A stretch of DNA of 64,000 nt from an uncultured Candidatus Saccharibacteria bacterium. GTDB taxonomy: Bacteria > Patescibacteriota > Minisyncoccia > Phycocordibacterales > UBA9973. Below are positions 9,473 through 54,598 of this stretch, piece by piece. Position 1 is the stretch's first letter. Every line of letters starts with the position of its first letter. A model generated the notes under the pieces. It was not told the origin of the DNA, ran no database searches, and saw only the letters and a program-made list of their open reading frames with translations. The translations under genes and the position numbers were made by a program. The DNA is taken from positions 2,072 to 66,071 of the forward strand of contig CAZUZL010000005.1 in assembly GCA_964625065.1 (NCBI GenBank), in the 5' to 3' direction.

Positions 9473-11899
9473 TTGAAAAAGGAAATAGAAAAGAAAATAG
9501 AAAGTCTAAACCGTACACGCGAAGTAGTATTGTTCTACGAACAGTACGAAGAAATAAAACACGACCATAACCTAATGGACTACGACGACGTACTAACATA
9601 CGCAGTAGACCTAGTGGAACAGTTTGAAAATGTTCGTGCTGATGTACGCGAAAATTACCTTTATGTTTTAGTAGATGAACACCAAGATTCGTCTGGTATA
9701 CAAAACAGGTTTTTGAAGGCAGTGTGGGCTGAAGTAGAACAACCAAACATATTTGTAGTTGGCGACGACAGGCAACTAATATACGGTTTTTCAGGTGCAA
9801 ATATAGATTACTTTAACGAATTTAAAACTGCATTTGGTAAAGCACAAAAAATTGTGCTTACAGAAAACTACCGTTCTACTGCACCGATACTAAACCTGGC
9901 CGACGACCTTCTAAAAAGTTCTATAACTACAGAGGCGCTACATAGTAACAAAACAGGCACTGACAAAGTAAATTTGTCCGAATACAAATACAACCGCGAC
10001 GAAATAATAGGCGCCGGTTTATATTTTAAAAAATTAATCGAATCTGGAACAAAACCAAATGAATGTGCAATATTGTTACCTAAAAACAGACATGTCCGCC
10101 AAGCTGTAACAACACTACGTTCTATGGGTGTACCTGTTGTATCAGAACAAAGTGTGTCTTTGTTAAGTTTGCCACAAACTCAGTCACTGTTACGTGTGTT
10201 AGGTATACTAGTAAACCCATACAATGGTATTTTATTAAACGAAACGTTGCTGGACGCAACCAGTGGTATACCGGCTTTTGTTGCATATACTTTTATAAAA
10301 AATACTAAGAAGTCTGAAAACCTGACAATAGACGACATGGTAGAAAACAACAAACATACAGGTATGTTCGCTGGCGCCGACAGTGTTGCCATGTTTGGTA
10401 CTAAACTAAAAACTTGGGTAGACACAATGGCTGGCGAAAAAGTTTCGCACATAGTTAGTGTTGTTGGCAACGAACTACTTATAGACCAAGCTAAAAACCA
10501 TGAAGACCTTTTAAGTTCTATAGAAGTTGTGCGTAGTTTTATACATGCGTCATTAGCCTGGGAAGAAAAACCTGCCCGAATGACTCAGTCAGGCGGGAAT
10601 GTAACATTAGGTTTAAAAGACTTTCTAACTTATATACAAAGACTAACCACATATGGTAACCATATTGAAGTTGCTGCACTTGGTAAAGACGAAGGTGTAC
10701 ATGTAATGACACTGCATAAATCTAAGGGTTTAGAATACGACCATGTTTGGATAGGCCACATGAACGAAGAAATACTGATGGGTTCTAAACATACCGTATT
10801 TACATTACCTGAAAAAGTTAAACAAAGCATAGCTGAACGCGACACTATAACTGCAAAGCGCGAACTTTATGTTGCCATTACTCGTGCTAAACAGTATTGC
10901 ACTATTAGCTATGCCCAAATGCGCGACGACGGTGTAGAACTAAGCCAGGCAAACATAATTGCAGATTTACCCCAAGAACATTTTATACATACAAATGCAA
11001 CAGAAAACGAACAAACAATATTAGCAGAAAATGCACGTTTATATGCAGTAAAACCACAGACGCAAGAAGAAGTAGAACTGTTAGAACAAGTTAAAAACTT
11101 TGTACACGACAGGTTTGCCGAAACAAAAATATCTGTGTCTATGTTAAACAACTTTTTCGAATGCACATGGAAATGGTATTTTAGAAACTTTTTAAAACTA
11201 CCTGAAGTTAAAGGTGTTTCGTTGGCATTGGGTTCTGCTGTACACAACACCATAGAATTTATTTTAAAAGAAAAATCTTTACCTGCTGATATAGAAATTA
11301 AAAAATTCATAATGCAGTCTTTGCAAAAAGAAAATGTTACCGATGTAAAGGAAATAGCTAGACTGGGCAAAGTCGCACACAAAGCAGTAACAACTTGGGT
11401 AGAAGGCTACTACAGTACACTGTCTAAAGACCGAGAATCTGAACGTGCACTTAGTTACCGCGACAAAATGTTTCCAAACTTATCTATGTTCGGTAAAGTT
11501 GACCTTACAGAACGCACAGGTGCCGGTGTGGTTATAACAGACTTTAAAACAGGTAGTAGTAAAACATCTGGTGTAATAGAAAAATTGGATGACGAAGGTA
11601 GGCTGTCTTCATATATGCGCCAGTTGGCAATGTATGCATACCTAGTAGACAGAACAGAAGGTAACATGCCCGACCAACTAAGGTTACTGTTTCTAGAAGA
11701 AGATGCAAAAAACAAAAACAAACTTTACAGCACACACATTACCGGCGAACAAATAGATTTATTAATACGCGATATTTCCAACTACCAAACATGGCTAACA
11801 GACGGCACATGGGTAAACAGACCATGTAATGCAGTGTTATATGGTGGTGGTGTTTGCGAATACTGCGCCCGCATGGAACGCATAATGGGCAAACAGTAA
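9473..11899 (+). CDS. UvrD-family helicase remainder fused to a C-terminal PD-(D/E)XK nuclease with a Cys cluster (AddA/AddB/Cas4-like); same frame as 8888..9472
   Basis: DYDDVL, VLVDEHQD (motif II), VGDDRQLIYGF (motif III), TLHKSKGLEYDHV (motif V/VI). C-terminal VDLTERTGAGVVITDFKTG nuclease motif with C...C-x9-C-x2-C cysteines. Confidence 0.75.
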   Translation: MKKEIEKKIESLNRTREVVLFYEQYEEIKHDHNLMDYDDVLTYAVDLVEQFENVRADVRENYLYVLVDEHQDSSGIQNRFLKAVWAEVEQPNIFVVGDDRQLIYGFSGANIDYFNEFKTAFGKAQKIVLTENYRSTAPILNLADDLLKSSITTEALHSNKTGTDKVNLSEYKYNRDEIIGAGLYFKKLIESGTKPNECAILLPKNRHVRQAVTTLRSMGVPVVSEQSVSLLSLPQTQSLLRVLGILVNPYNGILLNETLLDATSGIPAFVAYTFIKNTKKSENLTIDDMVENNKHTGMFAGADSVAMFGTKLKTWVDTMAGEKVSHIVSVVGNELLIDQAKNHEDLLSSIEVVRSFIHASLAWEEKPARMTQSGGNVTLGLKDFLTYIQRLTTYGNHIEVAALGKDEGVHVMTLHKSKGLEYDHVWIGHMNEEILMGSKHTVFTLPEKVKQSIAERDTITAKRELYVAITRAKQYCTISYAQMRDDGVELSQANIIADLPQEHFIHTNATENEQTILAENARLYAVKPQTQEEVELLEQVKNFVHDRFAETKISVSMLNNFFECTWKWYFRNFLKLPEVKGVSLALGSAVHNTIEFILKEKSLPADIEIKKFIMQSLQKENVTDVKEIARLGKVAHKAVTTWVEGYYSTLSKDRESERALSYRDKMFPNLSMFGKVDLTERTGAGVVITDFKTGSSKTSGVIEKLDDEGRLSSYMRQLAMYAYLVDRTEGNMPDQLRLLFLEEDAKNKNKLYSTHITGEQIDLLIRDISNYQTWLTDGTWVNRPCNAVLYGGGVCEYCARMERIMGKQ
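10571..10597 (+). repeat. GC-rich mini-element inside the uvrD-like gene: cctgcccgaatgactcagtcaggcggg
   Basis: Same family; encodes KPARMTQSGG. Confidence 0.7.
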
Positions 11900-11971
11900 A
11901 ACCCCTTGCAAGGTGCTAAACGTGCTATACTTAAAACGGCTTTATACATACGGTCAAAGGCTCAACTATTT

Positions 11972-12238
11972 ATGGAAACTCTATTAAAGGCCGACGTATT
12001 TTTCTTCATTACCAGCATATCGGTGGTGGTGTTAACTATTATTTTATCAATATTCTTGTATTACCTTATAAGTGCTATGAGGCACTTTCGAAAACTTGCA
12101 ATCCAAGTTGAAGAAAACTTAGGCAGTGCAAGTGCACAAGTAGAAGAAATGGTAGAACGCGTTTCAGATAGTTTTGTATTCTCTTTTTTATTTCCAAAGA
12201 AAAGAAAAAAACACGCTAAAGTTGTTTTGGAAAAATAA
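11972..12238 (+). CDS. Hypothetical small membrane protein
   Basis: ORF with one TM segment; the start was taken at the first ATG (METLLK). Weak call. Confidence 0.3.
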   Translation: METLLKADVFFFITSISVVVLTIILSIFLYYLISAMRHFRKLAIQVEENLGSASAQVEEMVERVSDSFVFSFLFPKKRKKHAKVVLEK

Positions 12239-12266
12239 GTTATAAAACCTAATCAGAAAATTAAAT

Positions 12267-12692
12267 ATGAAAAACAACACTGGAAAAGTTTTGGCCGTGG
12301 GTGCAGGTGTGGCAGCGTTGGCAGCAGTAGGGTACTTCTTCTTTGGGCCAAACGGGCAAAAGAATATTAAAAAGACAAAAGGTTGGATGATAAAATTCAA
12401 AGGCGATGTAGTAGACAAACTAGAAGACGCCAAGGAAGTTACTGAAGACAAATACCATTCTATAGTAGACTCTGTAGCTAGTGTTTATACAAAAAACAAT
12501 AAAGCAACAAAAGAAGAAGTTGCAGACCTAGTTAAAGACTTGAAAAAACATTGGAAAGCAATAGCAACAAACACCAAAGGTGCAGGTAAAGAAATAAAAA
12601 GTACAGCTAAAAAAGTTGTGTCTGCAACAAAAAACAATATTAAAAAGCTTGCCCGAAATTCACAGAAAGGCGGGGCCGTAAAAAACAAATAA
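12267..12692 (+). CDS. YtxH-like (DUF948) lysine-rich membrane-anchored protein, tentative
   Basis: N-terminal GAGVAALAAVGYFFFGPNG anchor followed by a K/E-rich helical region. Confidence 0.45.
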   Translation: MKNNTGKVLAVGAGVAALAAVGYFFFGPNGQKNIKKTKGWMIKFKGDVVDKLEDAKEVTEDKYHSIVDSVASVYTKNNKATKEEVADLVKDLKKHWKAIATNTKGAGKEIKSTAKKVVSATKNNIKKLARNSQKGGAVKNK

Positions 12693-12696
12693 ATTT

Positions 12697-12849
12697 ATGA
12701 TAATAACTATTGCAATACTGCTGTTAATATTATGGTTTTTAGGTTTGGTAACTGCATATACATTAGGCGGGTTAATACATGTGTTGCTAGTGGTGGCAAT
12801 TGTGCTGTTAATAGTACGCCTTATACGTGGTGAAAAGCTTGTAGACTAA
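12697..12849 (+). CDS. lmo0937-family small membrane protein (50 aa)
   Basis: Hand-translated: MIITIAILLLILWFLGLVTAYTLGGLIHVLLVVAIVLLIVRLIRGEKLVD. This matches the short lmo0937 family pattern and is not in the ORF track because it is under 60 aa. Confidence 0.55.
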   Translation: MIITIAILLLILWFLGLVTAYTLGGLIHVLLVVAIVLLIVRLIRGEKLVD

Positions 12850-12861
12850 TAAAAAATACAG

Positions 12862-12893
12862 TTAAAAACACCATATTTTATGGTGTTTTTATA
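12862..12893 (+). terminator. Rho-independent terminator
   Basis: aaaaacaccatattttatggtgttttt. Confidence 0.6.
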
Positions 12894-12894
12894 T

Positions 12895-12922
12895 TTGAAA
12901 AATACGTAAAATGTGGTAATAT
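12895..12922 (+). promoter_or_regulatory. Candidate promoter with extended -10 (TTGAAA-N16-TGgTAATAT) upstream of the tRNA-Thr pair
   Basis: TTGAAA at 12895-12900, TGg plus TAATAT at 12914-12922. It sits about 150 nt upstream of the tRNAs, so the leader is long and the call uncertain. Confidence 0.3.
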
Positions 12923-13074
12923 AAATTCGCCGTTGTAAACGAAGTTTTCATCGACATCGCTCGAAGTACCAAAATGCAAGCATTTTCCTACTTCTCGCTT
13001 GTCGCAGTAAGCGAACCTTGCACCGGCTTCGCTCGGAAGGAATGAATAAGTAAACTTTTCATTCTTCCTCGCTC

Positions 13075-13150
13075 GCCGTTGTAGCTCAGTTGGTAGAGCA
13101 CGTCATTGGTAATGACGAGGTCACCGGTTCAATCCCGGTCAACGGCTCCA
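13075..13150 (+). tRNA. tRNA-Thr (anticodon GGT), CCA encoded
   Basis: GCCGTTG acceptor, GCTC/GAGC D-stem, CGTCA-TTGGTAA-TGACG anticodon arm, ACCGG-TTCAATC-CCGGT T-arm, CAACGGC-T-CCA. Confidence 0.9.
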
Positions 13151-13153
13151 AAA

Positions 13154-13226
13154 GCCGATATAGTTCAGTGGCAGAACATTGCTTTCGTAAAGCACAAACG
13201 TGGGTCCGATTCCCGCTCTCGGCTCA
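13154..13226 (+). tRNA. tRNA-Thr (anticodon CGT), slightly imperfect stems
   Basis: GCCGATA acceptor with one T/C mismatch, GTTC/GAAC D-stem, anticodon loop TTCGTAA, T-loop TCCGATT. It ends 7 nt before the prfB ATG. Confidence 0.6.
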
Positions 13227-13233
13227 GAAAATT

Positions 13234-14124: not shown

Positions 14125-14226
14125 AATTTATGTTTCTAATTCAGCCCCTCTCCATTATTTATGGAGAGGGGTCGGGGGTGAGGTTTGTATTTTGTTATTC
14201 TCCTTCAATTTAGTATAATAGGGGGT

Positions 14227-14907: not shown

Positions 14908-14923
14908 TTGATATAATTACAAT

Positions 14924-15844: not shown

Positions 15845-15881
15845 TTATAAAATTTTATAAATTCGGAACATCAAATAATAT

Positions 15882-17642
15882 ATGAAAAACGAAAAGATAA
15901 AAGTTAAGAAAGATTTATCAGATTGTAAATATATTTTTGTTGTCGGCGGGGTTATATCAGGCGTGGGCAAGGGCATAGCCGCTTCGTCTATTGCTAAAAT
16001 ACTACAGGACCGTGGCCAGGTAGTTACCGCCATTAAAATAGACCCATATATAAACATAGACGCAGGTACCATGAACCCCACCGAACACGGCGAGGTTTTT
16101 GTGCTTACAGACGGCGACGAATGCGACCAGGACATGGGTAACTACGAACGTTTCCTTGGTCTAAGCTTAACCCGCACAAACTACATGACAACCGGCCGTG
16201 TATACCAGTCTGTTATAGAACGTGAACGTAACTTAGAATACGGTGGTGCATGTGTACAGGTTGTACCGCACATACCACTAGAAGTTATACGCCGTATAGA
16301 ACATGCCCGTGACGAAGCCAAGGCGAACGTAGTTGTTATAGAAATAGGCGGCACTATAGGCGAATACGAAAACATATTGTTTCTAGAAGCTGCCCGCATG
16401 TTAAAACTACGCCACCCGAAAAATGTTTTTGTGGCAGTAGTTTCGTACCTACCTATACCTAGTAAGGTTGGCGAAATGAAAACCAAACCAACCCAACACG
16501 CAGTGCGTACGCTAAACGCTTCTGGCATACAACCAGATTTAATAATTGCCCGCAGTCAAGTTCCACTAGATGCGAAACGCAAAGAAAAACTTTCTATGTT
16601 CTGTAACGTACCAGTAGACCGTGTTATATCTGCACCAGACGTAGATTCGGTTTACGACATACCAATGAACTTTGAAAAGGAAGGTCTAAGCGACATGATA
16701 TGCGACATAATGGGTATGACATGTTCCGTAGGCGAAACCCCACGTGCACGTGCATGGAAGTCTTTTGCTAAAAAAGTACACACAGTTAAAAAGGAAGTAA
16801 ACATTGCAGTTATAGGTAAATATTTTGGCACAGGCGACTTTGTTCTGTCAGACTCGTACCTGTCTGTTATAGAAGCTGTAAAATATTCTGCATATGCAAA
16901 CAATGTTAAACCAGTTTTAACTTGGATCAATTCATTAGACTTTGAAAATCCTGCCCGAATAACGAAGTCAGGCGGGAAAAAATTAAAACTAAAAGACTTA
17001 AAAAAATACGACGGTATACTAGTACCAGGTGGTTTCGGTTCACGTGGGGTAGAGGGTATTATTTCTACTATCGAATTTGCACGTACAAATAAAATTCCAT
17101 ACTTTGGTTTGTGTTATGGCATGCAACTTGCTGTTATAGAATACGCACGTAATGTATTAGGTTTGAAAGACGCGCATACTAGGGAAGTTAACCCTAAGTC
17201 TACAAATATGTTAATAGACATTATGGACAGCCAGCGCGACAATGTTGCCCACAGCAAGCTCGGCGGTAGTATGCGTCTAGGTTCGTACCCATGTGTTTTA
17301 TCTGCCGGCAGTATTGCACAAAAGGCATATTTTGGTACAACTAAAAAAGCCAAGGAAGCTAAAAACACTATTATCGAACGCCACCGCCACCGCTACGAAG
17401 TTAACCCTGCATATATAGAACGTTTACAACAAGCTGGTTTGAATTTCTCAGGTATGTCGCCAGACGGAACATTGTGTGAAATAGCCGAGTTGTCTAGAAC
17501 CAAACCTGCCCGACATGGAGGTTTTGGCGGGCACCCGTTTTTTGTTGGTGTACAATTCCACCCAGAATTTTTGGCACACCCACTGGCCCCACACCCACTA
17601 TTTTCTGAATTCATAAAATCTGTAATAAAGAATAAAAAATAG
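15882..17642 (+). CDS. pyrG: CTP synthase PyrG (contains two in-frame palindromic mini-insertions)
   Basis: GGVISGVGKG, GNYERFL, the glutaminase domain GILVPGGFG and QFHPEF. Extra peptides NPARITKSGGKK and KPARHGGFGG are inserted relative to canonical PyrG, as judged against the recalled E. coli sequence. Confidence 0.95.
   Translation: MKNEKIKVKKDLSDCKYIFVVGGVISGVGKGIAASSIAKILQDRGQVVTAIKIDPYINIDAGTMNPTEHGEVFVLTDGDECDQDMGNYERFLGLSLTRTNYMTTGRVYQSVIERERNLEYGGACVQVVPHIPLEVIRRIEHARDEAKANVVVIEIGGTIGEYENILFLEAARMLKLRHPKNVFVAVVSYLPIPSKVGEMKTKPTQHAVRTLNASGIQPDLIIARSQVPLDAKRKEKLSMFCNVPVDRVISAPDVDSVYDIPMNFEKEGLSDMICDIMGMTCSVGETPRARAWKSFAKKVHTVKKEVNIAVIGKYFGTGDFVLSDSYLSVIEAVKYSAYANNVKPVLTWINSLDFENPARITKSGGKKLKLKDLKKYDGILVPGGFGSRGVEGIISTIEFARTNKIPYFGLCYGMQLAVIEYARNVLGLKDAHTREVNPKSTNMLIDIMDSQRDNVAHSKLGGSMRLGSYPCVLSAGSIAQKAYFGTTKKAKEAKNTIIERHRHRYEVNPAYIERLQQAGLNFSGMSPDGTLCEIAELSRTKPARHGGFGGHPFFVGVQFHPEFLAHPLAPHPLFSEFIKSVIKNKK
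16950..16976 (+). repeat. GC-rich imperfect-palindrome mini-element inside pyrG (copy 1): cctgcccgaataacgaagtcaggcggg
   Basis: Motif CCTGCCCGA-N9-TCAGGCGGG, in frame, encoding PARITKSGG. Confidence 0.7.
17505..17531 (+). repeat. GC-rich mini-element inside pyrG (copy 2): cctgcccgacatggaggttttggcggg
   Basis: Same family as 16950; encodes KPARHGGFGG. Confidence 0.65.
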
Positions 17643-17660
17643 GCCAACTGCTTGTATTTG

Positions 17661-17688
17661 TTGACTTTTTTGTGTTTTATGTTAGAAT
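17661..17688 (+). promoter_or_regulatory. Sigma-70-like promoter (TTGACT-N16-TAGAAT)
   Basis: TTGACT at 17661-17666 and TAGAAT at 17683-17688, about 175 nt upstream of ORF 17862. Confidence 0.45.
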
Positions 17689-17861
17689 GCAACAAAAGCA
17701 CAAATAAATATGAGTTCAATAAAATTTAACAAAATCAACGAACCCTGAAAATATGGGAGGAATTTAACCTTTTAGCTGTCTTTTTAGAGCTTTGTCATAA
17801 AAATCTAAAAAGTAAACCTTTTAGTTCTGCGATAGGTTCGCAACTAGAAAATTCTAAATCT

Positions 17862-30073: not shown

Positions 30074-30149
30074 AAGTTTGTTCTTAGATAAATAGCATTG
30101 CTTTTTTTTGTTATCTATGGTATAAATTATATAGCAATTATTTTTGTAC

Positions 30150-30941
30150 ATGAGTTTAAATATATACATCCGTTCAGTATTATGTATCGTAATACTATTT
30201 TTGTGGCCCTTTTTTGGAAAAGGACAAACTTCTAATATTTACAGCTATAATCCAGGTGAACATGGTTTCAATGATGGTTTAATGCTGTATACATCTATTT
30301 TCCCATCGAATAGTGATACTTTGATCTTTCACAGTAATCAATTTGTTACTCCGCTTGAAGAAAATGACATTAATGGAATACCAGGATCCTCGCCTTTACG
30401 CGGGATTCGGTGGGACATAAAAGCAGTGTCTATGTATTCTGATACGCAAAAGGTAAACTTTTTGTTTAGCTTTTGGGACATGAGAACACCTTCATACAAC
30501 CCTAATCCTTCGGGCTTGTATTATTTGGTGCATAGAACTAGAGGTTCAGAAGTAGGCACAAAGTGGATATTAGAGGACTCAGTGTATGGGTACTCTGTTG
30601 ATTCAGTAGTGTTTAGAAATGTAAGTATTCCTCCAGGCGATCAGGAATGGACCATTGCTTCACCTTCAAGTGAATCCATTCTTCCTCCTCCGATGTGCCG
30701 TACTTTATCTGTATCATTAAATGAATCAAGAGATACATGTATTGTCGAGGTTATTCTTGCTACTTCAAATACTATTAAAGTAAAGATGAGTATAAACGAC
30801 GGAAGAGCTTATTCTCGCAAGTATCATTTTGAAAGAGGTATAAATTATATAAAAATACCTATACGTCGCGATGATTTTCAAAATATACATGTGGTTGTAG
30901 ATCAAAAGTTTGGTGCGCACTACGAACAGTGGATGAATTAA
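30150..30941 (+). CDS. Hypothetical secreted protein in an AT-rich singleton island
   Basis: Signal peptide MSLNIYIRSVLCIVILFLWPFFGKGQT. Local GC is about 35%, against roughly 42-45% in the housekeeping genes (estimated by eye, not computed). Confidence 0.45.
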   Translation: MSLNIYIRSVLCIVILFLWPFFGKGQTSNIYSYNPGEHGFNDGLMLYTSIFPSNSDTLIFHSNQFVTPLEENDINGIPGSSPLRGIRWDIKAVSMYSDTQKVNFLFSFWDMRTPSYNPNPSGLYYLVHRTRGSEVGTKWILEDSVYGYSVDSVVFRNVSIPPGDQEWTIASPSSESILPPPMCRTLSVSLNESRDTCIVEVILATSNTIKVKMSINDGRAYSRKYHFERGINYIKIPIRRDDFQNIHVVVDQKFGAHYEQWMN

Positions 30942-31015
30942 TTATATCTAGATGATATTTTGAAGCCCGCCATTATTAAATGGCGGGTTTTGTATTTTAT
31001 GTTATAGTTCTTTGT

Positions 31016-31771
31016 ATGAACGAAGAATACATATACGGCCAACACCCGATAGAAGAAGTGCTAACACGCGACCCTGGTCGTGTAGAAAAGGTGTATTTTA
31101 AAGACGGTATAAGTCGTGAAAAAACAAACGACCTTATAACAATGCTACAGAAAAACAAAATACCTTTTTCTTATGTGCCTGAAGCTCAGCTAAACCGTAT
31201 GGTCCGCGATGGCAACACACAGGGTATGGTAGCTACTATACGACCAGTGGCAATGTTAGACTTTGCAACTTGGGCCAAGTCTATGCACCATGCCGGTTCT
31301 TTTACAGACAAACCTGTTTGTGTTGTATTGTTCGACGAACTACAAGACCCGTTTAATGTAGGCGCTATTATACGTAGTGGTACGGCTTTTGGTGTAACTG
31401 CATTTTTGTTTCCAAAACATAACCAAGTTGGCATAACCTCAACAGTTATGAAGGCTGCTGCTGGAACTGCAGGCGTAGTGCCACTTGTTTCTATAGGTAA
31501 TGTAAACACAACAGTGCGCGCACTGAAGGAATACGGTTTCTGGGTATATGGTTTATCTGAAAAAGGCGACACATTGTTAAGTAAAGAAGACTTTCCAAGG
31601 CCAACATGTATAGTGGTAGGTAACGAAGACGTGGGTATACGTGCAAAAACTTTTGAACTTTGCGACACAACACTTTCTATACCAATGGACAACAATGTAG
31701 ATTCGTTAAACGTTTCAGTTTCAACTGCATTGGCACTATACGAATGGAAAACAAAAACTAATACACAGTAA
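31016..31771 (+). CDS. rlmB: TrmH/SpoU-family rRNA 2'-O-methyltransferase (RlmB-like)
   Basis: N-terminal YGQHPIEEVL (RlmB substrate-binding domain) and SpoU motifs VLFDELQDPFNVGAIIRSG and VVGNEDVGI. Confidence 0.85.
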   Translation: MNEEYIYGQHPIEEVLTRDPGRVEKVYFKDGISREKTNDLITMLQKNKIPFSYVPEAQLNRMVRDGNTQGMVATIRPVAMLDFATWAKSMHHAGSFTDKPVCVVLFDELQDPFNVGAIIRSGTAFGVTAFLFPKHNQVGITSTVMKAAAGTAGVVPLVSIGNVNTTVRALKEYGFWVYGLSEKGDTLLSKEDFPRPTCIVVGNEDVGIRAKTFELCDTTLSIPMDNNVDSLNVSVSTALALYEWKTKTNTQ

Positions 31772-31821: not shown

Positions 31822-34146
31822 ATGGACGACCCTATTACATATTTTGGTACAACAGACTACCGCAACAGGCAGGTGAAGTTTGGTATTAAAGCAAAAGACA
31901 GAACGAAACATTTATATGTTATCGGTAAATCTGGTATGGGTAAATCTACATTGCTGGAAAACATGGCAGTGCAAGACATTCAGAACGGCGAAGGTGTAAC
32001 CATTATAGACCCACACGGTTCGATGGTAGACAAAATGTTAGAATACATACCTGAACACCGCATAAACGATGTTATTTATTTTGCACCTTTCGACCTTGAA
32101 AACCCAATTGCATTTAACATAATGGAAAACGTTGGTGCTGACAAACGCCACCTAGTTGCCAGTGGTTTGATGTCTATATTTAAAAAAATATGGGAAGACG
32201 CATGGTCTGCCCGTATGGAATATATTTTAAACAACACCATATTGGCACTACTAGAATACCCCGGTTCAACATTGATGGGTGTTAACAAAATGCTTTCAGA
32301 CAAAGTTTACCGTAAAAAAGTTGTAGACAATGTTACAGACCCATCCGTTAAATCTTTCTGGGTAGACGAATTTGCAAAATGGACAGAACGTATGGCTGCC
32401 GAATCTGTGCCGGCTATTCAAAACAAAATTGGTCAGTTTACTGGTAACCCGATAATACGTAACATTGTTGGGCAGGCTAAATCTTCTTTTGATATTCGTG
32501 AAGTTATGGATAAGAAGAAAATACTTCTGATCAACCTTTCTAAGGGGCGCATTGGTGAACAAAACGCATCACTATTAGGTGGTATGCTTATTACCAAGGT
32601 TTACCTTGGTGCCATGTCGCGTGCAGATGTACCTGCGTCTGTTATGCACGTGCTACCTTCGCACTATTTCTATGTGGACGAATTCCAGTCTTTTGCATCA
32701 GATTCTTTTGCCGACATTTTGTCTGAAGCCCGTAAATATAAACTATGTCTAAACATAGCCCACCAGTATGTAGCACAAATGACAGAAAACGTACGTGACG
32801 CAGTTGTGGGTAACGTTGGTACCATGATTATATTCCGCATTGGTTCTGCTGATGCTGAAATGTTTGAAAAAGAATTTATGCCAGTGTTTACTGCCGAGGA
32901 TATTGTAAACTTGGATTTTGCACAGATGTATTTGCGTATGACCATAGACGGCATAGCATCAAAACCTTTTTCAGGTACAAGTTTGCCACCTATAGCGCCA
33001 CCCGTTATATCTTTCCGTGAAGAAGTAATGCGTGCTTCACGTCGTAACTTTGCTAACAATAGAACAGAAGTAGAAGCTGTAATTGCCAAAGAACTAGCAA
33101 CCGAAGAACCTGAACGTCGTCCCCGCCCGAACGACGGTTCAGTCGGGCAGGCCAAAACTGACACACCACGCCCTGATGGTACTGCACCAGCAGGTAGTTA
33201 TACAAAACCTGCATACAACAACGGTCCAGCAAAACCAACAACTGGTTACCAGGGTAATAACCCTAAACCATATAATGCTGACAAACCCGCATACCAGGGT
33301 GGTTCAAACGTGTCTGCACCGATTTCTAAAACTCAAACAACTACTACAGTTACAACAAACACAACAAGTGCTTCTGAAAAACCTGTATATAACAAACCCG
33401 CTTTTGTTAAACCAGTAAAGCCAACAATAAACCTAGGCGAGGCTATTAAAAAAAGTTTAGAAAATGTAGATGTGCCTGAAAAAGAAATTGTTGATGCATC
33501 TAAAAAACAACAACCTGCTAATGTTTCTAATACTGAAAATAAAAATGTACCTACAATAGGGCACCACAAACCACAACCATTTAAAAAACCTGATGTAACT
33601 ATTGCCGACAAACAAATTGAAAAAAACAAAACAGATGAAGTTAAACAAACAGGGCATAGTTCTATATTAAAAAACATACTTATTGAACTAGAACACAGTA
33701 TAGAAGAAAACATTGCCCCACATGTAAACCCTGAAAACGACAAAGTTGTTCTAAACCACCACAGTGCACCAACAGTGCAAAATACAGAAGCCACCACTAA
33801 AAAAGATTACGTTGAACTTAAAACCATACCTACTACCATAGCCCAACCAGCTAGTACCACAACTAAACCTGCACCAAGTAAAAACGAAGAATCGTTAGCT
33901 GCATTACGTGCCGCACTGTCCAATATACCTACACCTTCTACACCAGCAAAACCAAGTTTTGAAACTAAAAAAGTTTTTAAACCAATTTCAGGTAGTGCCC
34001 CTGCGCAACAGCCACTGCAAAATTCTAGTACTGGTACGCAAGTAAATAATGTGTCTGAGCCTAAAAACCCAGAACCAGCAACTGAACCAAAACAAGTTCA
34101 AGAAGTACCAGAAGATGTTTTGAAGAAAGTACTAGAAACTGAATAA
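31822..34146 (+). CDS. TraD/TraG/VirD4-like coupling-protein-family ATPase with a ~350-aa low-complexity Thr/Pro/Lys-rich C-terminal tail
   Basis: Walker A VIGKSGMGKST, Walker B HYFYVDEFQSF. The motif ARKYKLCLNIAHQYVAQM...VGNVGTMIIFRIG resembles the VirD4/TrwB RKYG...QS.AQL block. No other T4SS genes are nearby. Confidence 0.55.
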   Translation: MDDPITYFGTTDYRNRQVKFGIKAKDRTKHLYVIGKSGMGKSTLLENMAVQDIQNGEGVTIIDPHGSMVDKMLEYIPEHRINDVIYFAPFDLENPIAFNIMENVGADKRHLVASGLMSIFKKIWEDAWSARMEYILNNTILALLEYPGSTLMGVNKMLSDKVYRKKVVDNVTDPSVKSFWVDEFAKWTERMAAESVPAIQNKIGQFTGNPIIRNIVGQAKSSFDIREVMDKKKILLINLSKGRIGEQNASLLGGMLITKVYLGAMSRADVPASVMHVLPSHYFYVDEFQSFASDSFADILSEARKYKLCLNIAHQYVAQMTENVRDAVVGNVGTMIIFRIGSADAEMFEKEFMPVFTAEDIVNLDFAQMYLRMTIDGIASKPFSGTSLPPIAPPVISFREEVMRASRRNFANNRTEVEAVIAKELATEEPERRPRPNDGSVGQAKTDTPRPDGTAPAGSYTKPAYNNGPAKPTTGYQGNNPKPYNADKPAYQGGSNVSAPISKTQTTTTVTTNTTSASEKPVYNKPAFVKPVKPTINLGEAIKKSLENVDVPEKEIVDASKKQQPANVSNTENKNVPTIGHHKPQPFKKPDVTIADKQIEKNKTDEVKQTGHSSILKNILIELEHSIEENIAPHVNPENDKVVLNHHSAPTVQNTEATTKKDYVELKTIPTTIAQPASTTTKPAPSKNEESLAALRAALSNIPTPSTPAKPSFETKKVFKPISGSAPAQQPLQNSSTGTQVNNVSEPKNPEPATEPKQVQEVPEDVLKKVLETE

Positions 34147-41774: not shown

Positions 41775-43505
41775 ATGAAAAGTTTTACTTACCTACTTCG
41801 AGGATTTACATGTCTTTGGATTGTATTCGCTGGCAACAGTGTCTTAGCACAAGGTGCTGTAAAAGATACATTTGATTTTTATCAATATGATTCTTTTAAG
41901 CACAATGATTCTATAGATTTTATCGGTTTTCCGATACTTGAAAACAGTGATGGAAGCTATTCAAAATTAGTTTCCTATGGGATGAATAGGGATAAATACC
42001 TTTTTCGTTATGATTCAACAATGCAATTTCTTGACTCAACTGTGATAGAAAACTATGAAGCGGGATCAAATTATAGAGTTGGAGGCATAACCTATATGAA
42101 AAGAAACACCATAGGTTACTTGATCACTAACATGATAGGTATATATCAATATGATTCTTCTAATCAGATTGTTTGGAAAATATTTTTGAATTATAATCTT
42201 GAATCAGTCACAACTACACCAAATGGGTATGCTGTGATTGGAACAAAGGTTTCGTCTTGGGGAAATACGGGCTGGGGGACTAATATGGATACATTGTGTA
42301 AAATAGTTAGCCATATTAGTTTTTCCGGCAACCTACTTTGGGAGCAGAAATATAGAGTTCTGATTGATACACCAATCAATTATTACGGCTGGTATGAAGA
42401 TGGAATTATCTATAATCAAAATAAAATTTATTTTGCCTACATGGATTCAACTGAACAAAGATCAAATACATGGACCCCATCTTCAGTGGTAGTAAAAATC
42501 GATTTGTCTGGAAATACAGTTTGGCAAAAACACATAGATATTTCTGCTGGAACTTTCAAAAAAAATTCCAAAGGCATTTTCCTTTTTGGAAACGAAGAGG
42601 ACACCACAAATACGTATAGTACATACCGCATGTATAAATTAGACACCAGTAATGGCAATGTTAATTTATATTTGAGGTATCCTAATTGGGGCGGGTTATT
42701 TCATTATCATGATACTTTATGGCTACGTGTAATAAGACAAAATTACTGGGTTGCTGCCCAAAATAAAACAATCATTACAATAGAAATAATTAATATTTTG
42801 GGTGTCGATAGTGTTCAGTTGTATTATACATCAGATTATGTAAAGTTAACCGATACAACTATTAATCCTTATGGTCCGTACCCTATTTACATGGATTCAA
42901 AAGAAAACTTACTTACTAGTCTATTTGTAACAAAACACTTAAATTATTATTCGGAACTCATAGGAACTATTTTTTGTAAATTTGTTCTAAGAAAGGACAC
43001 CGTTAGTGTTCTGCCTATTAAACTTATAACATTCACTGGAATGTTACGGGGTGATGATGTTCAATTAAACTGGACTACTGCCACTGAAACAAATAACGAT
43101 TATTTTGAAGTGGAGAAGAGCCTCGATGGTAAAAGTTTTACTAAGATAGGTTTTGTAAAAGGTGCAGGCAACAGTATGAATGTTCAGAAATACAATTACA
43201 TTGATGTATCTGCAAACAATGAAGTTTTGTACTACAGACTAAAACAAGTTGACTATGATGGAAATTTTTCTTATAGCAATATTGTTGTTGTAAAACAAAA
43301 TAAAAGTTCTGTTAAACTGTACCCAAACCCATTCGAAAACCACGTTACTGTTTATGGTCATGGCGACATTGTAATTACCGACATACTTGGAAAAATTTAT
43401 TTTTCTGGCACTGTCGGCAATGTGCAAACCATAGACTGGCCTACTGGTGTGTATTTGGTTCAGTGTATGATTAACGGGGAAGTAAAAAAGATTGTTAAAA
43501 ACTAA
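41775..43505 (+). CDS. Secreted protein with a Bacteroidetes-type T9SS (Por) C-terminal sorting domain
   Basis: Signal peptide. C-terminus reads ...VKLYPNPFENHVTVYGHGDIVITDILGKIYFSGTVGNVQTIDWPTGVYLVQCMINGEVKKIVKN, the Por_Secre_tail signature. Confidence 0.75.
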   Translation: MKSFTYLLRGFTCLWIVFAGNSVLAQGAVKDTFDFYQYDSFKHNDSIDFIGFPILENSDGSYSKLVSYGMNRDKYLFRYDSTMQFLDSTVIENYEAGSNYRVGGITYMKRNTIGYLITNMIGIYQYDSSNQIVWKIFLNYNLESVTTTPNGYAVIGTKVSSWGNTGWGTNMDTLCKIVSHISFSGNLLWEQKYRVLIDTPINYYGWYEDGIIYNQNKIYFAYMDSTEQRSNTWTPSSVVVKIDLSGNTVWQKHIDISAGTFKKNSKGIFLFGNEEDTTNTYSTYRMYKLDTSNGNVNLYLRYPNWGGLFHYHDTLWLRVIRQNYWVAAQNKTIITIEIINILGVDSVQLYYTSDYVKLTDTTINPYGPYPIYMDSKENLLTSLFVTKHLNYYSELIGTIFCKFVLRKDTVSVLPIKLITFTGMLRGDDVQLNWTTATETNNDYFEVEKSLDGKSFTKIGFVKGAGNSMNVQKYNYIDVSANNEVLYYRLKQVDYDGNFSYSNIVVVKQNKSSVKLYPNPFENHVTVYGHGDIVITDILGKIYFSGTVGNVQTIDWPTGVYLVQCMINGEVKKIVKN

Positions 43506-47877: not shown

Positions 47878-47894
47878 TCTAACACGTAATAATT

Positions 47895-50800: not shown

Positions 50801-51545
50801 TGAAAAACGTGCACCGAAAAACCACGCTATTGTTTCTAAAACAGCAGGTGAAGTTATAGAAATAAAAGACAACGGTAAAGAAAAAATAGTTACTGTACTG
50901 TCAGATACAAAGTTCGACGGCAAGTCAAACACTATCGAATACAGTGTAACATTCCCACGCTCAGTTGTAGTTTCAAAAGGTCAACGTGTTGTAGCTGGCG
51001 GACTATTGTCAGACGGATCTGCATTGATCGACGACATTTTTGCTGCAGGTGGCAAAGAAATGGCTCAAGAATACATTATTCATGAAATTGCAAAAGTGTA
51101 CGAAGTGCAAGGTGCATCTATTGCCCCTAAGCATATCGAAATAGTTATACGTCAAATGTTCTCTCGTGTACGTATAACTGACGCCGGCGACACTGTTCTA
51201 ACACCAGGCACTGTTATTGAAAACTTTGAAATGTTAGAAGAAAACGTTCGCGCCAAAGCCCAAGGTCTACGTGAAGCAAAAGGCGACATGATAGTTCTAG
51301 GCATAACAACAACAGCACTTGAAACTAAGAGTTGGTTGTCTGCTGCGTCATTCCAACACACAAACCGTATATTGATAAACAATGCACTACGTGGTGGCGA
51401 CGACGACCTACGTGGTTTGAAAGAAAACGTTATTGTTGGTCGACTGATTCCTGCAGGTACAGGGTTCGGCAAACAAGGGCTGACACACTTAGACGAAGTT
51501 AAAGAAGACGTTGCTGAAACAGAAACTACTAACGAGGTAGAATAG
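47895..51545 (+). CDS. rpoC: DNA-directed RNA polymerase subunit beta' (1216 aa)
   Basis: Zn finger CYCGKYKRIRYAGIICEKCGVEV and the catalytic NADFDGDQMAVH. Confidence 0.97.
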   Translation: MKTFDTTNFNSIGISLASPEQMLEWSYGEVTKPETINYRTSRAERGGLFDERIFGPEKDYECYCGKYKRIRYAGIICEKCGVEVTKAIVRRERMGHIELAAPVAHIWFLKGVPSRMALVLGIQAQDLEKVVYFAGYIVTKIDQAEKERILHDLDTEFKSKTKMSADEDTRGKLRDLFAQAKKEVTEIVQGKVLNEINYHHYSLKYGSCFEASIGAESIYEIFKNTDLVKLKEKLETDLPKTNSLDRERTQKRLALVRSMVTAKVRPEWMFLKVIPIIPPNLRPMVALEGGRHATSDLNDLYRRVINRNNRLKKLKEIGAPDVILRNEKRILQEAVDALIDNNSGSAGGAAVSQSQKRALKSLSDNLRSKQGLFRQNLLGKRVDYSARSVIVVGPQLKLSQCGLPKEMALELFRPFVISKILARELAFNIRGANKLIEERTAEVWAILDEVIEGKFVLVNRAPTLHRLSIQAFNPVLIEGKAIQLHPLVCTGFNADFDGDQMAVHLPLSVEAQAEAGNLMAATKNLLKPANGDPIATAKLLDIILGTYWMTKNIEGEKGEGSVFSSPNEALLAYDFGHITFHSLIKVRGDSRSKFAPFEGTLIETTVGRILFNNIFPEDFRYINEEMTTKKVQALVDAFITSYGFDSAPKLLDAIKDFGYRYATISGHSWAIDSVRIPEKKQEVVAVYQKKNDELFAQHAEGLISEDEKYQKFQEIWNECKKEVEKLLPATLDLRGSYNDMYKSGARGSLNNMTQMVGMKGLIQNNQGRIIEFPVIPSYIEGLSPVEYFITTHGSRKGLSDTALNTAKAGYLTRRLVDVAQDVTITTADCGTKEGKTIRKQIISGLEIPLSKGLAGRVLLEDIKNAEGVTMYKKGTLIMKDEAVKIEKAGIESVKVRTPLSCKNTYGICQLCYGLDFGRNHLVNIGEAVGIVAGQAIGEPGTQLTLRTFHQGGVAGLDITAGLPRVEEIFEKRAPKNHAIVSKTAGEVIEIKDNGKEKIVTVLSDTKFDGKSNTIEYSVTFPRSVVVSKGQRVVAGGLLSDGSALIDDIFAAGGKEMAQEYIIHEIAKVYEVQGASIAPKHIEIVIRQMFSRVRITDAGDTVLTPGTVIENFEMLEENVRAKAQGLREAKGDMIVLGITTTALETKSWLSAASFQHTNRILINNALRGGDDDLRGLKENVIVGRLIPAGTGFGKQGLTHLDEVKEDVAETETTNEVE

Positions 51546-51546
51546 T

Positions 51547-53226
51547 ATGACGTCTGCAGTTACCCAGATAAAGGAACGACTTGGTATTGTCGAAGTCATT
51601 TCAACGTATATTGCGGTTAACCAGGCGGGTAGACAGTTTCGTGCAAGGTGTCCTTTCCATTCAGAAAAAACAGCCTCGTTCTACATATCACCAGAAAGAA
51701 ATTCGTACCATTGTTTCGGTTGTAGTAAAGGTGGCGACATTTTTACATTCGTCGAAGATATGGAAGGTGTAACTTTCAAAGAAGCATTAAAAATTCTTGC
51801 TGACCGTGCAGGTGTAGTACTGGACGACTATGTACACACAGTAGACGACACAGCGGTACTGTATTCTATATTAGAAAAGTCTAAACAATATTTTGTTAGC
51901 CAAAATATAGAAGCTTCAAAAAAATATGTATCAGACCGAGGTATAACACAAAAAACTACTGAACATTTTCAAATAGGGTATGCCCCTAACGAATGGCGTA
52001 GTTTAGTTGAACACCTGTGTAAAAACGGTTTCAAAGATGCAGACATTGTTAGGTCTGGCATGGCCATAGAAACAGAACGTGGTATATACGACCGTTTCCG
52101 TGGGCGTGTAATGTTTCCGATAAACGACACACAGGGCAGGGCAGTTGGTTTCTCAGGGCGTATACTACCAGTGTACGATGTGCCTGGTAAAAGCGGGGAC
52201 AAACCAGCCAAATACATAAATTCTCCGGAAACAGATTTGTACCATAAATCTACAATACTGTATGGTTATGACAAAGCCAAAAACGCATTGCGCACCAGTG
52301 GGTATGCAATTGTGGTTGAAGGTCAAATGGACTTGGTTCTGTCGCATCAGGCTGGGTTTGAACAAACTTTAGCTGTATCAGGTACCGCATTAACTAATAC
52401 CCACCTTGATCTGATAGGTAGGTTTACAAAGAAAATTTTATTTTCTTTTGACGGCGACGAAGCTGGTATAAAAGCATTAAAACGCAGTGTAGAAGAAGCA
52501 CTAGCTAAAGACTTTGACATAAGGGTTGTAAAAGTTCCAGTAGGTAAAGACCCGGCAGATATTATTTCTACAGACCCCGAAGAATGGAAAAATATAGTAA
52601 GTCAGTCTACATCTATAATAGAATACTTGTTACTACACTATGCAAAAAAACATACAGATATTCGTGAATTCAGAAACATAGTAGACAAAGAAGTCTTGCC
52701 TTATGTTAGGTCTATAAACAAATCTATAGACCGTGCGCACTTTATAAACTTAGTTTCCAGAGCTGTAGATTTGCCCGACGCTGTTATAGCAAAAGCCGTA
52801 CAGGAAATAAGTTTAGCGCCCCGTGCTGTAGAAAACGACTTACCTAAAAAAGAAAACCTTTCTGCTGAAACCATACTGTTAGGTTTAATATCTTTAGAAA
52901 AAGAATCGTACCCATTACTAAACGGCGTTTCAATAGAAAAACTGTTTAGCCAGTATATGGACCTGTCAGTAGACGAATGGAAAATAACAATGGAATCTGT
53001 CGATGCGGGTTACGCAAGTTCAGTTGCAGAATATTTGTTGCTACAAACCGAAGACCACGCAATGCAGTTTGTATCTGACAATGTAATGAAGGTTGCAGAA
53101 AAAAGGTTGTTCCAAGCCCTGTCGCACTTAAAAAAACAAGGTTTGGGTACACCAGAGGAAATGCATTTGTTTACAGACCTGACTCGACGGGTCGACAATA
53201 TTAAAAAAGATCGTCATAATGTATAA
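51547..53226 (+). CDS. dnaG: DNA primase DnaG
   Basis: CHC2 zinc finger [11 protein letters not shown]...[11 protein letters not shown], the RNA-polymerase domain, and the TOPRIM motifs EGQMD and DGDEAG. Confidence 0.9.
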
Positions 53227-54598
53227 TATGAAATCAAAATCAACAAAAAAGATCGTAAAAAAACCAGCCCGACAAAGTCATTCTGGCGGGGTTGTTAAAA
53301 AACCTGTAAAAAAGCCAGCCCGACCGAGTCATTCTGGCGGGGTTGTTAAAAAAACAGCACCTAAAAAAGTTGTTAAAAAAACAGTTGCAAAAAAACCAGC
53401 CCGACCGAGTCATTCTGGCGGGGTTGTAAAAAAACAACCAGCTAAAAAAATAGCGCCTAAAAAACCTGTCCGAACTACTGGCGGAGTTGTTTCAAAATCT
53501 AATTCTAAAAAAACAAAAGCACAACTTACAACAGAACTGTTAGAAAAACAATCAAATATTTTAGTCGAAAAGGGTAGAAAGCGAGGTTTCATAACCTTCG
53601 ACGAAATACTTAAAACTTTTCCTGATATTGAAAACAATGTTCTGTTTTTAGACGAACTTTATGAAAAGCTTTCAACTGTAGGTGTCGACGTACTAGAAGG
53701 TGGTAACTTGCTAGATGTTGACGCTGAAGTAAAAGAAATAATTACCGGCAGACACCATGACCCGTCTTACGATTCTATACAAATATACCTTAAGGAAATA
53801 GGTCAATACCCGTTGATATCTTCTGCAGAAGAACGCAACCTAGCAAAACGCATCGAAGTGGGCGACAACGAAGCTAAAAATTTGTTGGCACGCGCAAACT
53901 TGCGTTTGGTTGTGTCTATTGCTAAAAAATACCAAAACCGCAGTGCAGACCTATCTTTACTTGACCTGATACAGGAAGGTAACATAGGTTTGTTCAAAGC
54001 CGTAGAAAAGTTCGACTGGCATAAAGGTTATAAATTCAGTACATATGCAACATGGTGGATACGCCAATCTATAACTCGTGCATTAGCCGACCAGTCTAGA
54101 ACAATACGTATACCTGTGCACATGGTTGAAACTATTTCTAAATACAAACAAGTTTACCGACGCCTTTCACAGGACCTAGGCCGCGAACCACTGGCCGAAG
54201 AAATAGCTACAGAAATGGGTGTTGAAGTTGAAAAAATTCATGTTATCGAACAAATCAGTCAAGAAACAACATCACTAGAAAAACCAATAGGTGACGACGA
54301 AGACAAATCTACACTAGGCGAATTTATTCCTGATGAAAAAATTCTACGCCCAGACCAAGACGCTTCACGCCGTATACTTTCTGACCAGATACACGAAGTT
54401 TTGGCAGAACTTTCACCGAAGGAACAAAAGATTCTAGAAATGCGTTATGGTTTACACGACGGTGTACAACATACATTAGAAGAAGTAGGTAAAGAATTTG
54501 GTGTTACTCGCGAACGTATTCGTCAGATCGAAGCCAAAGTCCACGACAAACTTCGAAGTAATGAAAAAATAATGCGCTTAAAAAATTATTTTGATTAA
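53219..54598 (+). CDS. rpoD: RNA polymerase sigma factor RpoD (sigma-70) with a Lys-rich N-terminal repeat region
   Basis: Regions 1.2 to 4 are present ([53 protein letters not shown]). The N-terminus has three copies of KKPAR(Q/P)SHSGGVVKK. Confidence 0.9.
53264..53423 (+). repeat. Three tandem copies of a GC-rich mini-element inside the 5' end of rpoD (ccagcccgac[a/c][a/g]agtcattctggcgggg at 53264-53291, 53315-53342 and 53396-53423)
   Basis: Near-identical 28-mers spaced 51 and 81 bp apart, in frame, each encoding KKPARxSHSGGVV. They are related to the pyrG and uvrD elements. Confidence 0.75.

Follow-up and report, generated by a model that had tools for sequence, protein, structure and literature searches.

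What are the short GC-rich palindromes that recur, in frame, within genes of a compact AT-rich bacterial genome, and how did they get there? The question is raised by a 64,000-nucleotide (nt) stretch of contig CAZUZL010000005.1 from an uncultured Candidatus Saccharibacteria bacterium (positions 2,072 to 66,071; hereafter the window). An earlier note, made from the letters alone, had marked six copies of a GC-rich motif in pyrG (CTP synthase), rpoD (sigma-70), and a UvrD-type helicase gene, and had likened them to Rickettsia palindromic elements (RPEs). We compared the copies with relatives' sequences (L-numbered loci and P-numbered proteins) and conclude that they are, very probably, recently mobile insertion elements. 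The likeness to RPEs holds in that both are palindromic insertions tolerated in frame.

A family of 27-nt imperfect palindromes within genes

The regular expression CC[TA]GCCCGA-N9-12-[TC][CT][AT]GGCGGG matches the 64,000-nt window exactly six times, always on the + strand. All six previously marked copies are recovered, and the fixed-gap version of the motif likewise matches six times, where 100 dinucleotide-preserving shuffles of the window put the expectation at 0.00. Each match is 27 nt long, lies in codon phase 0 of its host open reading frame (ORF), and encodes (K/N)PAR-x4-(S/F)GG, in agreement with the KPAR-type peptide and common frame described before (six of six). The three rpoD copies each end one base earlier than first given (53290, 53341, and 53422). 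By Pfam annotation, the hosts are CTP synthase, a UvrD-type helicase/PD-(D/E)XK nuclease fusion, and sigma-70. A mismatch-tolerant scan of the window added two further copies, one degenerate (12648-12674) and one of 30 nt in reverse orientation (33122-33151), for a total of eight or about one copy per 8 kb (Table 1). Copies of this close lineage usually have a Lys before the pattern PAR-x4-SGG, the reverse copy at 33122 being the exception, and the seven sense copies of the window are all on the + strand, which is the leading one and has positive GC skew. G+C ranges from 33 to 42% in the window, about 84% of which is coding; all eight copies would fall within genes with a P of about 0.25, and the genic location that had been thought unusual is therefore not remarkable in itself. 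A candidate fourth rpoD copy at 53465-53485 was rejected: L129, the relative with the supposedly empty site, already has its left half, and the sequences differ there by an indel of just 12 nt.

The 27-mer is built as an imperfect palindrome of the 13+1+13 type. Its outer stem, CCTGCCC/RGGCGGG, includes one T.G pair, with a C.A mismatch as well in the common form; within the stem lie an inner GAC-loop-GTC hairpin and a bulge of four bases (ATTC). In longer members the arms are retained and compensatory pairs extend the inner hairpin, e.g., GACCAG...CTGGTC in a 36-mer; the stems are maintained by compensatory change. An arm variant, CCAG...CTGG, occurs in at least five lineages, with positions 3 and 21 always changing together (T/A with A/T), which is equivalent to a tetramer CCWG in both arms in inverted orientation. 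The copies at 10571 and 16950 represent form B, which is form A with 13 central bases inverted between unchanged arms. Of the hairpins that the copies had been said to form, that of the 30-mer at 33122 is strong (-18.2 kcal/mol, z -4.2), and those of the 27-mers are weak to moderate (-5 to -11 kcal/mol, z -0.5 to -2).

The similarity lies in the nucleotide sequence

If the copies resembled each other only as far as encoding the same peptide requires, they would not form a family of DNA elements, an objection that the earlier note had itself raised. Outside the elements, GCC accounts for 18% of Ala codons, CGA for 5% of Arg, and GGC and GGG for 24% and 8% of Gly. The probability of GCC, CGA, GGC, and GGG given Ala-Arg-Gly-Gly is 1.9e-4 per copy, and GCC-CGA is used in 0 of the 49 other Ala-Arg pairs of the window. 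Codon choice thus places the similarity at the nucleotide level, far beyond what the shared peptide requires, and the objection fails. Peptide convergence was rejected because the copies share rare codons and because elsewhere the DNA is read in other frames or is non-coding.

Filled and empty sites in relatives

For PyrG, RpoD, and the helicase alike, the nearest proteins are patescibacterial (candidate phyla radiation, CPR), with Minisyncoccia, Nomurabacteria, Pacebacteria, and 'Patescibacteria group' among the names of the hits. Close orthologues of all three proteins (88-97% identical) lack the blocks, which excludes conserved sequence, and DNA alignment with close relatives that have empty sites bears out the proposal that the pyrG copies are insertions. 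Both are exact nine-codon insertions relative to orthologues of 90-94% protein identity, and codon-aware DNA alignment places the boundaries at AAT^[CCT...GGG]^AAA and AAA^[CCT...GGG]^CAC, with target bases neither duplicated nor lost. The first pyrG site is empty in L005 (92% nt identity) and L003, filled by an identical 27-mer in L126 (88% nt), and occupied by a 30-nt variant at the same codon boundary in the distant L004. The second is empty in L005, L003, and L004 and, judging by protein length, in L126 too.

The helicase copy (10571) is a clean 27-nt insertion that has no counterpart in L127 (93% nt identity) or in 19 other orthologues. At this site, L126 carries CCAGCCCGACAAAGTCATTCTGGCGGG, the sequence of rpoD copy 1 of the window, where the window has CCTGCCCGAATGACTCAGTCAGGCGGG; the flanks are near-identical, and the two inserts disagree at 11 of the 27 positions. 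When the helicase genes of three lineages are aligned over 3 kb, every indel of at least 9 nt is such an element (27, 30, or 36 nt).

The three rpoD copies, which had been taken for a tandem array, are exact 27-nt blocks between AAAAA(A/G) and GTTGT. They occupy three separate KK^VVKK sites, which share the flanks AAAAAA^GTTGTTAAAAAA. Copy number is zero in L129 (97% RpoD identity across the 83% of the protein that aligns), one in L128 (RpoD 96% identical, copy 3 only), and three in the window; the sites of copies 1 and 2 are empty in both relatives and that of copy 3 is empty in L129. States of 0, 1, and 3 with exact blocks indicate three insertions at similar sites and no tandem duplication.

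The same exact and duplication-free 27-nt boundaries separate filled from empty units of a 112-nt repeat on a Rikenellaceae contig (L007), and no target-site duplication was found at any filled/empty pair compared (pyrG, helicase, rpoD, and the Rikenellaceae repeat). The earlier note had asked whether copies share target-site features. In this lineage they do: AAA(A/G/T)^ precedes the insertion at every sense-frame site with flanks read. Flank profiles of the cross-phylum sample show no consensus target sequence. As AAA is mostly a Lys codon, the preference would also explain the common reading frame of this lineage's copies. Independent insertion into preferred sites is the simplest reading of the recurrent use of sites.

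Two copies have less sharply defined surroundings. The L126 orthologue of ORF 12267-12692 has a shorter C-terminal tail without the 12648 copy, and this tail is too variable to set boundaries. The 33122 copy is a putative insertion in a hypervariable linker that follows the conserved VirD4/TraG-like ATPase domain of ORF 31822-34146. This ORF encodes a VirD4/TraG-like coupling ATPase with a long low-complexity tail.

Host proteins and the fate of the copies

An AlphaFold model of PyrG of moderate quality (mean pLDDT 66) places both inserts in coil of low confidence that links secondary-structure elements, and the loop predicted at the first site has a pLDDT below 50. The rpoD copies sit in a Lys-rich N-terminal tail and the 12648 copy in the Lys-rich C-terminal tail of ORF 12267-12692. 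Older copies have drifted, as seen in the right arm of 17505 and in the peptide PVHPSKNGAAG at the first pyrG site in P0101, and nothing suggests that the host maintains them.

The proposed tolerance of insertions in essential genes is upheld by the intact ORFs of pyrG and rpoD and is less certain for the helicase gene. An in-frame TAA at 9470-9472, where all relatives have GAA (Glu), splits the latter into ORFs of 194 and 808 codons; helicase homologues are 993 amino acids long. Unless the TAA is an error in the sequence, it is a nonsense mutation of recent date that has made a pseudogene, and because of it the gene may not be functional.

Spread of the family across phyla

We scanned one genome per GTDB species with the pattern CCTGCCCGA-N9-12-TCRGGCGGG and obtained at least 120 loci; the counts in this section refer to the matches listed. 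The family sample comprises the 93 loci of at most 56% G+C (681 kb). It contains at least 107 matches, at least 93 of which have the conserved interior or its centrally inverted form, with the family consensus CCTGCCCGA-CTNNGTCAT-TCAGGCGGG. Loci above 56% G+C contributed 27 matches; apart from three, these have spacers that are unrelated and seem coincidental. By locus, conserved-interior matches occur in Bacteroidota (52), Planctomycetota (13), and CPR (7), and further in Chlorobiota/Ignavibacteriales (2), Marinimicrobia (1), and an archaeal metagenome-assembled genome (1). The carriers include the cultured Bacteroidota Terrimonas pollutisoli and Pinibacter aurantiacus and, among Planctomycetota, Brocadiaceae and Scalindua. 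Window copies differ from those of Bacteroidota and Planctomycetota at only 1-3 of 27 positions.

Sixty-three of the 107 matches lie outside long ORFs and the rest lie in ORFs in both orientations (24 antisense, 20 sense). The frames in which the consensus has a stop are nearly empty (a0, 1; a2, 2) compared with a1 (21), s1 (8), s0 (6), and s2 (6). This frame usage bears the mark of insertion with subsequent selection and speaks against a functional peptide or mRNA element. Host proteins elsewhere include DnaE, LigA (NAD-dependent DNA ligase), ArgRS, an FAD oxidoreductase, and, in cultured Terrimonas, a GH2 glycosidase and an alpha-fucosidase, with the insert inside Pfam domains.

A sister family with the arms CCCGTCCGA / TCGGACGGG shows compensatory changes relative to CCTGCCCGA...TCAGGCGGG, and its copies adjoin or nest within elements in Bacteroidota and Scalindua (L021, L069, L084, L108, and L026). 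Identical 7-8-nt direct repeats flank five of the 107 genome copies, against 0.0 expected, and three more copies in viral contigs. The repeats belong to tandem heptamer arrays, e.g., TTTTCAA x3 and AATCACG, and are found at L015, L068, L116, L124, L133, L138, and L149. About six of 34 matches in viral contigs look genuine, the remainder being chance matches in high-GC phages. A blastn search of PLSDB plasmids gave no match to the element, and there is no cyanobacterial genome among the 120 loci listed. Rfam has no match for the window at gathering thresholds, nor for six copy-bearing loci at E values up to 1. We found no description of the element in the full-text literature searched, and its strings are absent from the supplements of two catalogues of repetitive extragenic palindromes (REPs) and from a stem-loop family survey.

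What moves the elements

We propose that this family of 27-36-nt GC-rich hairpins is non-autonomous selfish DNA of the kind represented by REPs, RPEs, and the SDR elements of cyanobacteria. A copy would be pasted as an exact block that leaves the target bases unchanged, in this lineage into A-rich sites (AAAA^). In a genome that is about 84% coding, most insertions would hit genes, and the survivors would be those with a length that is a multiple of three, a stop-free frame, and a place in a surface loop or disordered tail. There they would add a small flexible peptide, PAR-x4-SGG (sense frame 0) or R(L/P)ND-x-VGQ (antisense), and then decay neutrally into ordinary loop sequence. The outer stem CCTGCCC/RGGCGGG and the inner GAC-loop-GTC hairpin are most likely what the mobilising machinery recognises. 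That machinery may be a Y1 HUH single-strand transposase of the REP-associated tyrosine transposase (RAYT) or IS200 type, which would act in trans on the folded strand in a seamless 'peel and paste'. We give about even chances to this explanation as a whole, i.e., non-autonomous REP/RPE/SDR-like mobile hairpins moved by an HUH enzyme. The single step that assigns the movement to an HUH enzyme is put forward tentatively.

The HUH route is judged the most likely one because insertion occurs without duplication, the hairpin fold includes G.T pairs, the elements are REP-like, and Y1 genes are enriched nearby. Two of the 148 ORFs within 1 kb of copies match Pfam Y1_Tnp and a third is RAYT-like. A profile search identified six RAYT/IS200-like genes in the 681 kb around copies (L007, L022, L039, L045, L083, and L108), four of them within 400 nt of a copy (L007, L022, L039, and L108), where well under one Y1 gene per Mb would be expected from published copy numbers (PMC6006769), a rough comparison rather than a formal control. 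The window itself has a RAYT-like gene 1.25 kb downstream of the triple rpoD cluster, in a block missing at this position from the relatives that have one rpoD copy or none. REPs have also been reported in frame within genes of repair and replication (PMC3733652; PMC6006769).

An IS200-like TnpA with a YIKNQEEHH motif is encoded at L022 3579-4112, and a 27-mer lies 49 nt upstream of its start codon; the gene is also flanked on both sides by its own GCTCC-N3-GGAGC hairpins. TnpA proteins of the YIKNQEEHH type form 'subclass 1.2', which has been reported without known repeats (PMC6006769).

Several observations weigh against an HUH enzyme as the mover. The Y1 genes near copies belong to different subclasses, each with its own different flanking hairpins, and their enrichment may only reflect clustering of repeats. 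RAYT substrates are defined by a GTAG/GTGG or CGTC foot tetranucleotide (PMC3733652; PMC6006769), and neither was found at the 27-mer boundaries (start CC, end GGG) or in the flanks. REPs are normally species-specific, whereas this element is near-identical across phyla. The covarying positions 3 and 21 do not pair opposite each other in a simple hairpin, and 7-8-nt flanking direct repeats occur on about 7-10% of copies, inside tandem heptamer arrays. Finally, the RAYT-like gene of the window is bracketed by palindromes of 31-35 nt that are unrelated to the 27-mers, and 80 metagenome loci (341 kb) with homologues of this gene (ORF 54669-55361) contain no 27-mer. Given its own palindromes and these 80 loci, the gene was set aside as the cognate enzyme and is a candidate mobiliser at most.

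The same selfish element might also move without a dedicated DNA transposase, either as RNA/cDNA via a reverse transcriptase or by template switching or short-patch gene conversion between A-rich sites. No cognate enzyme was found, including at the 80 loci with RAYT-like homologues; the rpoD sites share flanks, and copy 2 does not differ from copy 3, a pattern that short-patch conversion would give; and forms A and B differ by an inversion of the central 13 bases between unchanged arms. Template switching between short inverted repeats yields central inversions (quasi-palindrome mutagenesis). We nevertheless regard this route as unlikely: the same 27-mer lies in unrelated flanks in pyrG, the helicase gene, and rpoD, which means that flank homology cannot drive its spread, and near-identity across phyla needs a sequence-specific agent. 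Intragenic copies are antisense (24) as often as sense (20), and neither the poly-A tracts nor the target duplications of target-primed reverse transcription are seen. Footprints or miniature inverted-repeat transposable elements, i.e., two 13-nt terminal inverted repeats left or mobilised by a DDE insertion sequence (IS), would fit the 13+1+13 palindrome and the direct repeats that flank about 7-10% of copies. They are nonetheless highly improbable, as no site with an empty allele has a target duplication, the flanking repeats are parts of longer heptamer arrays rather than simple duplications, and a search of the examined loci (G+C up to 56%) for a parent IS with the same ends revealed no arms split by an IS-sized segment.

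Selfish spread could have been followed by retention for host use of the hairpin in mRNA stability or translation pausing, or as a recombination, uptake, or protein-binding signal. Conserved stems with variable loops, G.U pairs in the sense strand, and the leading-strand position of all seven sense copies in the window are compatible with such use, and host roles of REPs are on record (PMC6006769). Presence and absence differ between relatives that are 92-97% identical, however, and copies decay (17505, 12648, and P0101), the fold z scores of the 27-mers are unremarkable, orientation to the host gene is about 50:50 across genomes, and copies are sparse in the window (about one per 8 kb). We therefore consider host use quite improbable, and do not favour the earlier suggestion that the host exploits a regulatory hairpin. 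A functional peptide module, KPAR-x-SGG, selected in several proteins has virtually no chance of being the explanation. Close-lineage copies other than the reverse one at 33122 do encode the same pattern, usually after Lys, but identical rare codons recur in every copy, the DNA is elsewhere non-coding or read in four other frames, the reverse-oriented window copy encodes a different peptide, and close orthologues work without it; codon and frame evidence have effectively refuted the module already.

Comparison with known palindromic repeats

REPs are known to occur within genes. GTAG- or CGTC-tagged copies have been described in UvrD, RecBCD, polymerase, and ligase genes (Di Nocera et al. 2013, PMC3733652), and other copies lie inside tnpA-REP genes (Quentin et al. 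2018, PMC6006769). Our elements resemble the REP/RAYT system in that both consist of GC-rich imperfect palindromes, 20-40 nt long and containing G.T pairs, which are dispersed in many copies, sometimes in frame in genes (UvrD-type helicases, polymerases, and ligases) and near Y1 HUH genes. At 27-36 nt, with eight copies in the window and at least 107 in the 93 low-GC loci, the elements fall within the size range of dispersed REPs (about 20-65 nt). They differ in that they lack the GTAG/GTGG or CGTC foot tetranucleotide of REPs, are shared across phyla (24-26 of 27 positions matching in CPR, Bacteroidota, and Planctomycetota) where REPs are species- or genus-specific, and are essentially all intragenic in this genome. 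Moreover, no REPtron with 27-mers as flanking hairpins was found among the six Y1 genes near copies and the window gene. We file the element as a variant of known in-frame palindromic repeats, placed outside the REP/RAYT family.

RPEs are selfish elements found in frame in Rickettsia genes; RPE-1 exceeds 100 nt, whereas RPE-4 and RPE-6 belong to the CGTC-type REPs and are restricted to Rickettsia (Ogata et al. 2000, as summarised in PMC3733652). Like RPEs, our elements are selfish palindromes tolerated in frame in a small AT-rich genome, where they add surface peptide segments, and in-frame insertions with intact ORFs are found in pyrG, rpoD, and the helicase gene as well as in genes for DnaE, LigA, ArgRS, GH2, and fucosidase elsewhere. 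They are distinct in their length (27 nt), arms, lack of a CGTC tag, occurrence in several phyla, and Minisyncoccia host, a separation made by description and not by comparison of consensus sequences.

SDR1-8 of Nostoc and its relatives, which Elhai and colleagues are said to have described in 2008, are reportedly compound hairpins of 21-27 nt that occur only in cyanobacteria and mainly outside genes. By description only, the two groups share a size class, precise insertion, nesting in repeats, and heptamer arrays; our element shows precise insertion (the L007 units), nested composites, and heptamer-array flanks. SDR elements may thus be the closest parallel in size, precise insertion, nesting, and heptamer association. 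In a comparison with IS200/IS605 (PATE-like) elements, which insert without target duplication on the 3' side of a fixed tetra- or pentanucleotide, the relevant features are the lack of target duplication and a target that is AAA(A/G/T)^ in this lineage and without consensus across phyla. The GC clusters of yeast mitochondria are also mobile, short GC-rich palindromes, e.g., the optional in-frame cluster in var1. They are similar to our elements in occupying an AT-rich compact genome, in being polymorphic between strains, and in being tolerated in frame, but are organellar, unrelated in sequence, and spread by gene conversion at double-strand breaks, often duplicating target bases.

A putative RAYT-like cassette and other features of the window

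The RAYT-like gene near rpoD matches the NCBIfam model for REP-associated tyrosine transposase with an E value of 3.8e-12, which is below the curated cut-off. Together with an HNH endonuclease gene it forms a 1.6-kb block (54600-56200) that is missing at this position from L128 and L129. Near-identical, perfect palindromes of the form ..TTTCCCACCAGTC[A/T]GACTGGTGGGAAA.. bracket each cassette gene (54614-54648, 55361-55391, and 56145-56175), and the block looks like a REPtron-type mobile cassette in a CPR genome. The RAYT-like genes of L164-L243, metagenome contigs with homologues of ORF 54669-55361, are flanked on both sides by lineage-specific perfect palindromes (stem 10-16, loop 1-5), and several carry palindromes inside too (e.g., L171, L190, L199, L201, and L203); more than 550 such palindromic stretches occur in these loci. 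REPtrons appear to be common among the metagenome relatives of ORF 54669-55361, whose contigs are most likely CPR.

Table 1. Coordinates of the element copies, their host genes, and the cassette genes in the window
Feature	Position	Strand	Sequence, encoded peptide, and remarks
27-nt copy, form B (centre inverted), helicase gene	10571..10597	+	CCTGCCCGAATGACTCAGTCAGGCGGG = PARMTQSGG; exact motif match
Probable degenerate copy	12648..12674	+	CTTGCCCGAAATTCACAGAAAGGCGGG = LARNSQKGG; 15/18 arm positions match
27-nt copy, pyrG site 1, form B	16950..16976	+	CCTGCCCGAATAACGAAGTCAGGCGGG = PARITKSGG
27-nt copy, pyrG site 2	17505..17531	+	CCTGCCCGACATGGAGGTTTTGGCGGG = PARHGGFGG; right arm decayed
30-nt long-form copy, reverse orientation	33122..33151	-	CCTGCCCGACTGAACCGTCGTTCGGGCGGG; gene strand = RPNDGSVGQ; 18/18 arm positions match
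rpoD copy 1	53264..53290	+	CCAGCCCGACAAAGTCATTCTGGCGGG = PARQSHSGG
rpoD copy 2	53315..53341	+	CCAGCCCGACCGAGTCATTCTGGCGGG = PARPSHSGG
rpoD copy 3	53396..53422	+	Same sequence as copy 2
UvrD-type helicase/PD-(D/E)XK nuclease gene	8888..11899	+	1002 codons including in-frame TAA; Pfam
pyrG (CTP synthase), host ORF	15882-17642		
Sigma-70 (rpoD), host ORF	53219-54598		
RAYT-like Y1 HUH transposase gene	54669..55361	+	NHFH and YIHLNP motifs; candidate enzyme only
HNH endonuclease gene	55442-56137		In the 1.6-kb block

Two intergenic stretches around tRNA-Ser(GGA) had been listed as relatives of the elements, and neither is a mobile copy. The hairpin at 6919-6949 is conserved upstream of tRNA-Ser in L127 and is probably part of the tRNA promoter or leader. 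Within 7185-7215, a perfect left arm and six loop bases begin at 7186 and no right arm follows, which makes this a fragment at most. A second copy of the final 18 nt of tRNA-Ser(GGA) (7035-7052) occurs at 7230-7247, and the intervening 195 nt are specific to the window, as they are not found in L127 or L126; they hold a long hairpin (7053-7100) and the GC-rich stretch with the perfect element left arm (7186). The layout of 6965-7247 resembles an att-site remnant of an integrated element.

ORFs 30144-30941 and 30980-31771 are separated by a perfect GC-clamped hairpin at 30965-30986, CCCGCCATTATTAAATGGCGGG, which resembles a terminator and does not belong to the 27-mer family. ORF 41775-43505 has a weak match (E 4e-5, below the cut-off) to a type IX secretion C-terminal sorting domain, which is typical of Bacteroidota.

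Implications

At 27 nt, close to the smallest described, the elements are among the smallest and most widely spread mobile DNA families in bacteria. They are active on the time scale that separates strains of 92-97% identity. As the only sizeable indels in the genes compared, they are a main source of change in protein loop length in a minimal genome, with sigma-70, CTP synthase, DnaE, LigA, and ArgRS among the proteins affected. In metagenome-assembled genomes the inserts can skew alignments, domain calls, and phylogenomic markers, and their presence or absence offers a ready strain marker. An agent that mobilises a 27-nt unit would define a minimal transposition substrate and would be of practical interest for seamless in-frame tagging.

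That copies are nearly identical in such distant phyla suggests that the element or its enzyme has passed horizontally between CPR and Bacteroidota/Planctomycetota. It is conceivable, if rather doubtful, that the pan-phylum 27-nt hairpin is, without any guide sequence, the complete substrate of a horizontally shared single-strand DNA enzyme. If so, this enzyme might belong to one of the orphan Y1 HUH subclasses of Bacteroidota and Cyanobacteria, for which no substrate is known. The hairpin would then be a non-cyanobacterial counterpart of the SDR elements and would steadily supply essential enzymes of Bacteroidota, Planctomycetota, and CPR with new surface loops.

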